A stretch of 64,000 bases of DNA from a virus. How positions within the stretch are numbered: position 1 is the first letter of the stretch; every line of letters begins with the position of its first letter. The notes under the pieces were generated by a model. It did not search any database. It worked only from the letters and a program-made list of their open reading frames with translations, and was not told the origin of the DNA. Below are positions 333 to 27,055 of this stretch, piece by piece. A program made the translations under genes and the position numbers. The stretch covers positions 1-64,000 of the IMG/VR virus record IMGVR_UViG_3300035703_000033. One strand, written 5' to 3'.

Positions 333-627
333 ATTAGGTGTAGATGAAGATGAATTTGCATGGTGGGATATTGCAGCATGCTCTGGAATGAATACAAATT
401 TATTTTATGATACATATGAATCAGATATTAATATTGCAAAAAATATAGATCAGGCTTGCCTGTCTTGTCCAGTTATAGCTATATGTTATAAAAATGGAAT
501 TAAAAATAATGAATATGGTGTCTGGGGAGGAGTTTACTTAAACTCTGGACAACATGATAAACAAAGAAATATTCATAAAACAAAAGAGATCTGGAAGGAA
601 TTAAAAAAGAAGCATGCACAGATCTAA
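313..627 (+). CDS. whiB: WhiB-family Fe-S transcription factor
   Basis: Four Cys (AAC...ACLSCPVIAIC) and YGVWGG motif. Confidence 0.92.
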   Translation: MSSILNKLGVDEDEFAWWDIAACSGMNTNLFYDTYESDINIAKNIDQACLSCPVIAICYKNGIKNNEYGVWGGVYLNSGQHDKQRNIHKTKEIWKELKKKHAQI

Positions 628-1091: not shown

Positions 1092-1327
1092 TGGAAAAAA
1101 TATTATGTTATTCATGCAATAAAAGCAAAGCCAATCTTAATCTGGTTAAATCTACCCTACTTGGAATTAATTTGTTTTTATGTGAATCTTGTAAGTCAGA
1201 AAAGCTAGAGCCTAGATGGGTTGTAATAATTGCTGGCAGACAAAATGGTCCAGAATCTGTAAAAGAATTTATTGCAAAGAAAAGATACAACGGCAACGAA
1301 ATTGCAGCTTCAGAATTATTAATTTAA
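1091..1327 (+). CDS. small Zn-finger protein
   Basis: CYSC...CESC pairs. Confidence 0.7.
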   Translation: MEKILCYSCNKSKANLNLVKSTLLGINLFLCESCKSEKLEPRWVVIIAGRQNGPESVKEFIAKKRYNGNEIAASELLI

Positions 1328-1361
1328 TTAATGATATATATTAAGGTATAATATATCTATA

Positions 1362-1679
1362 ATGAAAATAGATATATTTACCTTGCTTATCTCCTTATCT
1401 GCAGCAATTTTAAGCGGTATGGGTACTGCTATAATTGCTGGTATTAAAGATTCAAAAAAAGAAAAAACTAGGCAGCAAGAGCGAGAGCAAGATCATTTAA
1501 AAATGGAAATTAAAGATTTAAAAATTCAATTATATGAGCTTGAAAAACAGTTGACTGAATGGAAAGATAAATATTATAATGCCATACAGCAACTAATTGA
1601 GGTTAAATCTGAGCTAGAGCAAACATTAATTCAATTAGATCATATGAATATTCACGTAGAAGACCCTAGCACACCATAA
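1362..1679 (+). CDS. membrane-anchored coiled-coil protein
   Basis: N-terminal hydrophobic helix then heptad-rich segment. Confidence 0.7.
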   Translation: MKIDIFTLLISLSAAILSGMGTAIIAGIKDSKKEKTRQQEREQDHLKMEIKDLKIQLYELEKQLTEWKDKYYNAIQQLIEVKSELEQTLIQLDHMNIHVEDPSTP

Positions 1680-25171: not shown

Positions 25172-25369
25172 TTAGTAACCTAAAACTTCTGTTCCGTATT
25201 GTGATACGGCGTCATAGAGGCTCATCATACCTTTATGGTCTTTACATCTAGGGCAGAAAGCGTTCCACCCGTCTGTTAGTGATGAGCAGAATACGCAAAC
25301 CTTATCGGTTACGCAAAAATTGTTATCTACTAAGTATTCGATTATTTCATTTTTATTTAGTGTAGTCAT
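25172..25369 (-). CDS. small Zn-ribbon protein
   Basis: CVFC...CPRC. Confidence 0.7.
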   Translation of the reverse strand: MTTLNKNEIIEYLVDNNFCVTDKVCVFCSSLTDGWNAFCPRCKDHKGMMSLYDAVSQYGTEVLGY

Positions 25370-25665
25370 TTTATGACCTACCTTTCTTTAACTTTCTTTA
25401 TACTATAATCATATAACGGGGGTCTGACATTTTTCAAGTCGCAAAACGGACATTAGAGACATTTTAAAAAATAATTTAGAAAAATCATATGAGATACATC
25501 ACATTATGGGCGCACTATCGGACAAATCGGACATTTATAGATGTATGTATCATACAAATTAAAAATATATTAACATTTTTCAAAATCTGATTTTTTAGTT
25601 GATCGCAAAATCGCCAAATTCAAAAAAATATTTTTATTAACATTTTATAAATCTGAAAATAGTAG

Positions 25666-25695
25666 TTGACTAGAATATATGAACTATGTTATAAT
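25666..25695 (+). promoter_or_regulatory. sigmaA-type promoter
   Basis: TTGACT-N18-TATAAT with extended TG. Confidence 0.75.
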
Positions 25696-25701
25696 TTACT
25701 T

Positions 25702-25914
25702 AACAGCAATTCGACGGAAGAGCTGGAGTATGGCAGAAATTTCTCGTTGTCAACAAGGGGGAATTGCATAAGAGGCCTTAACAGGTAAAGATAGTAACTT
25801 AAACTCTTAGTAGAACTAAAGCGGATCTAATTGAGCTGTTGACTTGTTCTTGATGGTAAAAAGCAATCCATCTACTCACAATTAATCTCAAAGAGAAATC
25901 TTTGGGATTTTTTT
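25702..25914 (+). ncRNA. candidate structured ncRNA 1 (~210 nt)
   Basis: Own promoter and terminator, no ORF, closing stem AACAGCAATT/AATT(GA)GCTGTT and nested stems. Confidence 0.65.
25884..25914 (+). terminator. intrinsic terminator
   Basis: AATCTCAAAGA-GAAA-TCTTTGGGATT then T-run. Confidence 0.8.
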
Positions 25915-25961
25915 GTTTTTACCTATTGACTCTAGAATTTTTGTAATGTTATACTTTAGTT

Positions 25962-26081
25962 CGGTTTGTGGGGGCTTACACTGGGAACTCAGTTATACCA
26001 AGTGTCTGCTTCTCTATCTCGTCAAAGTTTTTAACTTTGGGGGGTAGGGGGGCTTTCCTAAAAATCATAGTTTCCCAAGTA
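25962..26081 (+). ncRNA. candidate structured ncRNA 2 (~120 nt)
   Basis: Promoter TTGACT-N18-TATACT (25926-25955); two G-U-rich hairpins and possible long-range pairing. Confidence 0.55.
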
Positions 26082-26106
26082 TCATATATATTATATAATA
26101 TGTTAT

Positions 26107-26835
26107 ATGAATAATAAATACAAAGATTTCTATTTTTTACATATCAGAAAAACTGGCGGTAGATATGTAAAACTATTTATCTTGAAAAATCTAAAAAACA
26201 GTATTAATGTCATAGACACTGGAGAAAAACACTCTGGTTGGATAGATAAGATAACTCCAGAAACATATGTATTTACAGTATTTAGAGATCCAGTAAAACA
26301 AATTTGCAGTTTGTATGCTCATGCAGTTTCTCAAAAAGCTAATCTGCTTGAAATTTCTAAAAATTCTGAAGATCACTTAGATAATTTAAATAAAAATATT
26401 AAAGATATACATTTAGACAAAAAGTATCTTTTTGCTTGGCTAGAAAGAAATAAATGGGTATATAACATTCAAAGCAAAGAAATATTGCGTGGCTCTACTG
26501 AAAGTAAAAATGTAATAGATCAAATTATACAAAAATATACTTTTAATAATAATATAGATAAAGATTTGTTATATACAAGATTAAGAAGAATAAATCTCTT
26601 AGTGAGACAGACTAGCTTATATGATCCAGAACCAATAGTCAAAAAAATATGTTCTGACTTAGGAATTGATTTTATTGGCGGGGTTGAAAAAGATCAATTG
26701 ACTTTCTATAATATGGCATCATCTAATCTATATAAAAGCTTAACTGAAGAAGAAAAAGCTGAGATAGAAAAGTTGTTTGACGTAGATTGTGAAGTATATA
26801 ATAATGATGATTTATTCTATAGAGTAGTCGACTAG
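26107..26835 (+). CDS. sulfotransferase-family protein
   Basis: FYFLHIRKTGG (5'-PSB-like), FTVFRDP...SLY (3'-PB-like), C-terminal D..VY. Confidence 0.85.
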   Translation: MNNKYKDFYFLHIRKTGGRYVKLFILKNLKNSINVIDTGEKHSGWIDKITPETYVFTVFRDPVKQICSLYAHAVSQKANLLEISKNSEDHLDNLNKNIKDIHLDKKYLFAWLERNKWVYNIQSKEILRGSTESKNVIDQIIQKYTFNNNIDKDLLYTRLRRINLLVRQTSLYDPEPIVKKICSDLGIDFIGGVEKDQLTFYNMASSNLYKSLTEEEKAEIEKLFDVDCEVYNNDDLFYRVVD

Positions 26836-26859: not shown

Positions 26860-26946
26860 ATGAAACTCATAATCGCAGTAGCTGTCATAGCTATCATGGT
26901 ACATATATGTGGAATACTATTCCAAATCTATGGGCCTATAGCTTAA
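26860..26946 (+). CDS. possible leaderless hydrophobic peptide (28 aa) overlapping tRNA 5' end
   Basis: ATG 6 nt after TGnTATACT; MKLIIAVAVIAIMVHICGILFQIYGPIA. Confidence 0.4.
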   Translation: MKLIIAVAVIAIMVHICGILFQIYGPIA

Positions 26947-27006
26947 TCTGGTGAAAGCAATTGTCTTATATACAATCGAGTTTCGGTTCAAATCCGAATA
27001 GGCCTA
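26932..27006 (+). tRNA. tRNA-Ile (TAT anticodon)
   Basis: GGGCCTA/TAGGCCT acceptor, ATTGT-CT-TAT-AT-ACAAT anticodon arm, GGTTCAAATCC T-arm; followed by CAA, CCA not encoded. Confidence 0.9.
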
Positions 27007-27055
27007 CAAATAAAACAGGGGGAATCAGAGACCTACTCTCTGGTCTAAATATCCC

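Follow-up and report, generated by a model that had tools for sequence, protein, structure and literature searches.

A divergent manA-family RNA encoded as a self-contained transcription unit in an aquatic phage related to Streptomyces phages

Introduction

The manA motif was described by Weinberg et al. (2010) as an element in the 5' UTR of a metabolic gene, with one loop pairing, that of L3, marked 'pseudoknot?' (PMC2864571). In the literature manA is treated as a cis-regulatory element or a 5'-UTR riboswitch candidate (PMC2864571, PMC9964418, PMC7657543), and the Rfam type of the family (RF01745) is 'Cis-reg'. The manA RNA of the marine cyanophage P-SSM2, which scores 181.6 bits against RF01745, is located between regA and purL, 15 nt before purL. 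A recent preprint reports that manA RNAs form RNA-only cages in vitro, namely pentamer-based closed oligomers, with a 60-mer, among five constructs (10.64898/2026.07.01.735769). The manA assemblies resolved there by cryo-EM are octamers or decamers and a 60-mer, with contacts L5-L7', L3-L8' or L8-L9', and L1-L1', the L3-L8' contact being intermolecular in the Photobacterium manA structures; most members have a four-way junction of P4, P5, P6 and P7, whereas the 6FAB RNA lacks one (Fig. S13 legend, 10.64898/2026.07.01.735769). The manA family has been known since 2010 and its cage-forming property since 2026, and the RNA class considered here is accordingly not new.

Here we analyze a manA-like locus in the first 64,000 nucleotides (hereinafter, the window, to which all positions refer) of the IMG/VR virus record IMGVR_UViG_3300035703_000033. 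The record is 109.6 kb long, 92% complete according to CheckV, and has a GC content of about 36%. Its major capsid, portal and RNR proteins are 58-68% identical to those of Streptomyces phages of the Stanwilliamsviridae; together with a WhiB-family gene (Table 1), this similarity suggests an actinobacterial host in spite of the 36% GC, and we infer from these sequences that the phage is of siphovirus type and infects a low-GC actinobacterium of aquatic habitats. Relatives of the capsid protein occur on more than 599 IMG/VR contigs, the best 80 of them at 83-94% identity, and a search of IMG/VR with the neighboring 242-aa protein as bait returned no relatives. DNA runs from nine or more studies, whose metagenome labels are freshwater, aquatic, estuary, sediment and subsurface, contain the segment 25500-26200.

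A divergent member of the manA family

A first-pass annotation made from the letters of the window had proposed a stand-alone multibranched phage ncRNA at this locus and considered it novel. The stand-alone RNA turned out to be a genuine, independently transcribed unit (see below), but the novelty did not withstand comparison with Rfam. In a sensitive cmscan of the region 25300-26200, manA was the sole strong match, at 25707-25882 with 45.2 bits; the match includes every consensus helix and spans model positions 1-192 of 192, and the E-value, on the order of 1e-10 over the full model, is 3.1e-10 for the 901-nt region and 8.8e-12 for the whole record. The gathering score of RF01745 is 55.2 bits, so that the Rfam search at the gathering threshold does not find this RNA. 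At gathering thresholds, ARAGORN and Rfam together detect two tRNAs in the window and nothing else; in line with the annotation, which had judged the RNA to be unlike tRNA, tmRNA or RNase P, neither program recognized any of these in it, the sensitive scan included. The phage genome contains a single manA copy.

Sequences scoring above the gathering threshold serve as intermediates that link the window RNA to the manA family. An exact 17-mer from its last hairpin retrieved 19 loci from IMG/VR, three of which (G001-G003) are true manA RNAs that score 61.8-82.4 bits against RF01745 and align with the window RNA over the full length at 58-66% identity. A degenerate two-block pattern applied to a metagenome collection yielded 38 loci that fall into two clades: the ~200-nt marine cyanophage type, including P-SSM2, and a group of RNAs of ~177-192 nt, hereinafter subgroup B, with 13 distinct sequences including the window RNA, whose nearest member is 66% identical to it. 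A covariance model built from the 12 other subgroup-B sequences, with the window RNA left out (R1), matched the latter with 122.8 bits (E 2.8e-34) over positions 1-187 of 187, compared with 38-58 bits for the cyanophage-type RNAs; the window RNA has the lowest R1 score within subgroup B. Judged by sequence, the ~182-nt segment is a divergent member of the manA family that belongs to subgroup B of aquatic phages. The AA/GA mismatch in its first hairpin, the lost adenines of the M1 module, the altered loops (all described below) and the low GC content (39%, against 45-53% in the other members of subgroup B) account for the sub-threshold Rfam score. Such a copy would escape standard Rfam annotation, and the phage lineage that carries it is absent from those listed for manA.

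Searches beyond these sets were negative. The two-block pattern returned nothing new from IMG/VR and 12 chance matches in 185,579 prokaryote genomes, that is, no subgroup-B copy in cellular genomes at the stringency of this pattern. A blastn search in distant mode with the region and with the manA of a relative produced no match among 50,697 cultured phage records, and no manA was found at E <= 0.01 in Streptomyces phage Paradiddles or in the cyanophages syn9, S-PM2 and S-RSM4.

Comparison with the cyanophage type (P-SSM2) shows the same order of helices, the GACG-capped P1, the closing helix, P3 with its GAA internal loop, an L3 loop complementary to the 3' side of the penultimate domain, the last hairpin (GGUA...AG.AAUCC) and the CAC tail. 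The window RNA differs from this type in being about 20 nt shorter, in having two rather than three hairpins in the middle domain, in its signature blocks GGAGUAUGGC.GAA and AAAGCGG, and in possessing its own promoter and terminator instead of just preceding a metabolic gene; its host is probably an actinobacterium rather than a cyanobacterium or a Photobacterium, and its score lies below the Rfam gathering cut-off. The resemblance to subgroup B is closer. Compared with IMG/VR G001-G003 and the metagenome loci L130, L162, L156, L141, L128, L151, L132, L137 and L133, the window RNA shows 51-66% identity over the full length, the same 5' AACA, the same blocks, the three-way middle domain, the L3 pairing and a stand-alone or tRNA-flanked context; it is the most divergent of the set, with a shortened 3' strand of M1 and an internal mismatch in P1.

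Fold and covariation

The 213-nt stretch 25702-25914 has a minimum free energy (MFE) of -56.7 kcal/mol (z = -3.2; none of 200 shuffled sequences folds as well), and the MFE structure of the sequence alone has the same manA architecture, with all manA helices and the terminator coexisting. The search for homologues and covariation that the annotation had proposed as a check came out in favor of this fold: in a model-guided alignment of the 13 sequences, which is fitted to the structure and thus favors the covariation result, standard pairs occupy 93.7% of the cells and 36 of the 53 pairs are changed on both sides. On each of five measures, all 500 column shuffles fall short of the observed value, and when the partners are slid by 1-3 columns, 34-47% of the cells are paired. 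An independent MAFFT/RNAalifold run found compensatory changes in 27 of 38 pairs. The covariation supports all helices as well as the L3 loop pairing. As aligned, 47 of the 53 pairs are retained in the window RNA; of the six that are not, one is a mere alignment gap at the L3 pairing.

Table 1 Positions of the features of the manA locus and of other genes mentioned in the text
Feature	Position	Strand	Description or basis
WhiB-family gene	361-534		PF02467, 40 bits
tRNA-Asp	19614-90	-	ARAGORN/Rfam
Promoter	25666-25695	+	-35 TTGACT (25666-71), 18-nt spacer, extended -10 TG-n-TATAAT (-10 at 25690-95)
manA-family RNA	25702-25883	+	RF01745, R1, RNA-library contigs
P1 hairpin	25704-25725	+	9 positions; AA/GA internal mismatch in the window; invariant GACG loop (25713-16)
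P2, 5' strand (GGAGU)	25726-25730	+	Closes the multibranch core; pairs with 25873-25877; 100% paired, 2 pairs covary
P3a/P3b	25733-25767	+	With internal loop (module M1 of the preprint); alignment and preprint Fig. S13 legend
L3 loop (GUCAA)	25749-25753	+	Pairs with UUGAC 25839-25843; pseudoknot or intermolecular kissing contact
P4 domain	25769-25809	+	Three-way junction with two hairpins (25775-86, 25789-99); family alignment
Next domain (P8 of the preprint)	25812-25850	+	Outer helix AGAAC/GUUCU, conserved AAAGCGG, inner helix, variable loop, L3 partner UUGAC
Last hairpin (P9 of the preprint)	25852-25872	+	GAUGG/CCAUC, invariant 11-nt loop UAAAAAGCAAU
P2, 3' strand (ACUCC side)	25873-25877	+	Followed by a near-conserved AC tail
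Intrinsic terminator	25884-25916	+	11-bp stem, GAAA loop, U-run; no overlap with the manA fold
RNA-library contigs	25723-25867; 25715-25865; 25723-25871; 25721-25873		Mapped to 25400-26300
tRNA-Ile(UAU)	26932-27007		ARAGORN/Rfam

Most of the stems that had been picked out by inspection of the window correspond to elements of the family structure (Table 1). The stem AATTTCTC/GGGGAATT is P3, TAAGAG/CTCTTA is P4 with GCCT-TAAC-AGGT as one of the hairpins inside it, and GATGG/CCATC is the last hairpin; all of these are supported by covariation, and the second pair of the last hairpin, A-U in the window, is itself a compensatory change. The exception is the pairing suggested between the 5' end AACAGCAATT and 25829-40: the two segments are complementary here, but 42.5% of the cells pair in the 12 homologues, which is the background level. 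The family structure has a local pairing of the 5' CAGC (25704-07) with 25722-25 as part of P1, where eight of the nine pairs covary and seven of the nine are kept in the window. The last C of P2 and the AC tail form the sequence CAC, replaced by CAA in one of the 13 sequences. In the M1 module the invariant GAA is present (25736-38), and the AA on the 3' side in the family is deleted, with an extended pairing instead. The segment AUUUCUC (25739-45) is complementary to GAGAAAU in the terminator, a feature specific to the window sequence.

The L3 pairing covaries across subgroup B (GUCAA/UUGAC, GCUAU/AUAGC, GCCAG/CUGGC), with the partner on the 3' side of the penultimate domain; covariation cannot tell an intramolecular from an intermolecular pairing. 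The window RNA and all other members of subgroup B lack the four-way junction and have two hairpins inside P4, which results in a three-way junction. The loops of these hairpins are UUAGCG twice in subgroup B, and UUAAC(A) and AUAGUAA in the window. By eye, we found no convincing Watson-Crick kissing complementarity of the two UUAGCG loops, either to each other or to other loops. The window RNA retains the GACG of L1, the complementarity of L3 and the last loop, which is invariant, and has changed the two middle-domain loops; because both UUAGCG loops are changed, it may be unable to make contacts observed in other manA RNAs. Among the cryo-EM constructs, manA_6FAB (octamer/decamer) shares UAUGGC.GAAUAA and UAAGGCAC with subgroup B as compared by eye (Table S3 of the preprint) and, like subgroup B, is without the four-way junction (Fig. 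S13 legend, 10.64898/2026.07.01.735769); by the same visual comparison, its other domains differ from those of the window RNA. The loop of P3b in manA_6FAB has 3 nt, which implies that there is no L3 pairing in that RNA.

A self-contained transcription unit

The promoter TTGACT-N18-TATAAT named in the first-pass annotation is indeed located immediately upstream of the RNA (25666-25695), with 11 of 12 consensus matches and the TG of an extended -10 element, and the conserved 5' AACA of the family begins 6 nt past the -10 box. It is among the best consensus promoters of the genome. The GAAA-capped terminator is likewise present, with its 11-bp stem and U-run (25884-25909); it begins 6 nt after the fold, with which it has no strand in common. 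As also noted from the sequence, there is no ORF between the two, other than mechanical ones of 26-40 aa, none of which is conserved. Promoter, RNA and terminator form one self-contained unit. A second promoter, TTGACT-N18-TATACT, closely similar to that of manA, lies at 25926-25955. These two are the only forward-strand sites in the first 64 kb with TTGAC(A/T) and an extended TG-n-TA(T/A)A(A/C/T)T -10 element, and the same regular expression also matches at 76934 (+) and 51510 (-). The two promoters resemble a duplicated strong promoter cassette. Beyond the terminator, the second unit (25926-26106) comprises a G-run-rich leader or RNA of ~145 nt (MFE z = -2.8) that matches no Rfam family and is 80% conserved in G009, a close relative of this phage (L167 9178-9322), where it lies 3' of a tRNA-Ile.

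Metatranscriptomes, the other check that had been suggested, contain the RNA. Four runs from four studies (three riverine, one lake), chosen for containing words of this stretch, each yielded one contig of 151-160 nt (Table 1). When mapped to 25400-26300, these contigs lie exclusively on 25715-25873, and 25400-25714 and 25874-26300 are uncovered in the same runs, which provides an internal control and no proof that the flanks are silent. None of the four contigs has joints or loose ends. The evidence consists of assembled contigs with a depth of 3-7, from which no ends, strand or level can be derived. Given that four independent libraries contain only the RNA part of a 701-nt query, an abundant stable RNA of ~180 nt fits better than DNA carry-over. 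That the contigs end before the terminator hairpin gives, at best, a slight hint of 3' trimming.

Genomic context of the homologues

The phages that carry the subgroup-B loci share genes with this phage at 35-66% amino acid identity. Every subgroup-B RNA has AAC as its first conserved bases, and the next base is A, or G in two sequences; this 5' end is found in two kinds of surroundings. In six contexts, including the window, a TANNNT box ends 6-7 nt upstream of it: TATAAT in the window, TAGGAT in L130, TATAGT in L162, TAGAAT in L151, TACTAT in L134 and, with a -35 element, TTGACA-N18-TAGGAT in L132. In at least three others the RNA starts 1-2 bases past a tRNA, namely tRNA-Asp in L156, tRNA-Gly in L022 and tRNA-Thr in L021, and in L141 it starts after a tRNA-like 3' end. 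On the 3' side, L130, L141, L132, L128 and the window have a terminator, L023 has a terminator-like hairpin ahead of a tRNA, and L156 and L021 have a tRNA immediately; L137 and L133 are the only loci with a ribosome-binding site and an ORF close downstream (~20 nt). Altogether, 8 of the 13 distinct subgroup-B sequences are located in or beside tRNA clusters, and several abut tRNAs to the nucleotide. The same 5' end reached by two biogenesis routes argues for a discrete stable RNA, and the recurrent placement in phage tRNA loci suggests that it is handled like a stable RNA of the tRNA type.

A similar relation to tRNA genes emerges from the close relatives of this phage. The interval that separates the phrog_1221 gene from the RNR gene is spanned by four IMG/VR contigs whose RNR is 87-92% identical to that of this phage; the homology of these contigs to the window extends to ~25680, in the -35 region, beyond which the sequences diverge. 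The homologous promoter region is followed by tRNA-Ile(UAU) and then a homologue of window 25923-26063 in G009, by tRNA-Asn in G012, and by tRNA-Asn and tRNA-Thr in G007; the stretch fetched from G021 contains no tRNA. RF01745 and R1 detected no manA on 30 contigs of close relatives, most of which are fragments and four of which cover the syntenic interval. It follows that the window manA takes a slot that tRNA genes fill in G009, G012 and G007, and that the RNA is dispensable for this phage lineage. The tRNA-Ile(UAU) of the window is conserved in G009 (L167 9081-9156) at 83% identity, and in that relative it comes directly after the counterpart of the manA promoter region. Between the sister phages, this locus of small RNAs is rearranged.

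Proposed role and alternative explanations

The own promoter, the non-competing terminator and the contexts of the homologues argue for a stand-alone RNA gene and against a 5'-UTR switch. We therefore favor, as the probable explanation with appreciable room for others, that this divergent manA RNA is an independently expressed small RNA that acts in trans as a folded particle and does not switch a downstream gene. In this scheme, transcription would start ~6-7 nt past the consensus sigma-70/sigmaA-type promoter, at the conserved AACA, and would stop at the intrinsic terminator without competition with the fold. The RNA would then fold into the manA core, with the GACG-capped P1, the closing P2, P3 with its internal module and the P4 junction domain, followed by a further domain whose 3' side pairs with L3 and by the hairpin with the invariant 11-nt loop; the resulting stable particle would act in trans and would not control the next gene. 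The RNA probably acts as a folded particle and, by analogy with other members of the family studied by cryo-EM in vitro in one preprint, may associate with its own copies via loop-loop contacts. A function as a sponge or particle in trans is possible, and the role may be related to translation or to counter-defense; a link to tRNA biology is suggested by gene position alone. A bolder version, tentative and unlikely in our estimate, is that manA-type RNAs are in general stable RNA particles of phages, produced from tRNA-type slots and operons and not switches, that form RNA-only oligomers or cages in infected cells. Here, one such RNA would have replaced a tRNA at the head of a small-RNA locus, the L3 pairing would be an intermolecular building contact, and the particle would serve to sequester, or as a scaffold for, a factor of the host or the phage.

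A closer tie to the tRNA system, with the RNA serving, for example, as a decoy or substrate mimic for host enzymes that process or target tRNAs and with RNase P and 3' processing freeing it from tRNA operons, appears unlikely. Such a tie would explain the tRNA-adjacent positions of most subgroup-B sequences and the occupation of a tRNA slot in the window, but ARAGORN and Rfam see no tRNA-like fold, the cyanophage copies lie outside tRNA arrays, and the linkage may merely reflect shared strong promoters and stable-RNA processing. A cis-regulatory riboswitch or attenuator, in which a ligand-sensing fold would control terminator read-through into the sulfotransferase-like gene at 26107-26835, is what the literature on manA as a 5'-UTR element and riboswitch candidate would predict, and the position of the P-SSM2 copy before purL, the copies in L137 and L133 and the terminator directly 3' of the window fold are compatible with it. 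However, the terminator and the fold share no strand and are both present in the MFE structure, the downstream gene is served by the separate promoter and a 150-nt leader, homologues have tRNAs on both sides and the RNA contigs end before the terminator, so that we regard such a switch as improbable. It is quite improbable, too, that the locus is a decaying manA relic, no longer functional after the loss of conserved loops and modules. The lowest score in the subgroup, the altered M1 module and UUAGCG loops and the absence from close relatives would fit decay; against it, all helices are kept by compensatory changes in P1, P4, AGAAC/GUUCU and GAUGG/CCAUC, neither the L3 pairing nor the invariant 11-nt loop is disrupted, the promoter is one of the genome's best, and the RNA is found in four RNA libraries. 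Finally, an RNA class unrelated to known families, of which the first-pass annotation had named a 6S/Ms1-like RNAP decoy and a packaging RNA as examples, is highly improbable. The stand-alone unit at the edge of the early region and the failure to reach the Rfam gathering threshold are what one would expect of it, yet two independent models and the direct alignment to above-gathering members (58-66% identity) establish full-length homology to manA, no 6S or Ms1 family matches at E <= 10, the fold is a multibranch junction, and nothing was found in support of a packaging RNA.

With these alternatives weighed, the favored reading of an independently expressed particle makes this locus a clean natural example that speaks against the switch model: a manA RNA of classic size with its own consensus promoter and a non-competing terminator, with tRNAs at the same position in sister phages and a short RNA in river and lake metatranscriptomes. 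The 5'-UTR placement of the original description does not apply to the window RNA, which has its own terminator with a second promoter beyond it, and whose homologues have tRNAs as neighbors; the reading as a stand-alone gene is in contradiction to the 'cis-regulatory' label in the literature (PMC2864571, PMC9964418, PMC7657543). The locus adds to the family a WhiB-encoding freshwater phage, common in that habitat and related to Streptomyces phages, and it defines a subgroup of ~180 nt in which two biogenesis routes lead to one fixed 5' end. The gain is modest in that the family was already known.

Other RNA features of the subgroup-B loci

Several loci of subgroup B contain additional RNA features. 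In L128, L142, L153 and L159, the sequence directly preceding the AACA, in the ~60 nt upstream of manA, resembles the 3' half of a tRNA, with a T-arm-like GGUUCACGACC and an acceptor-like end; ARAGORN makes no tRNA call for these segments, which may be a degenerate tRNA or a processing signal. In L021 (IMG/VR G003), a stretch of ~140 nt between tRNA-Asn and a thioredoxin-like gene (~1290-1430, minus strand) is closed by a 12-bp helix, GAAAGGGUAGAC ... GUCUACCCUUUC, and may be another structured RNA of the operon that contains the tRNA and manA genes. Phage tmRNA genes are present in two of the small-RNA loci, L021 (2748-3006) and L149 (8699-9027), with the tags GVTQNALALAA and ANSRSAFALAA, respectively.
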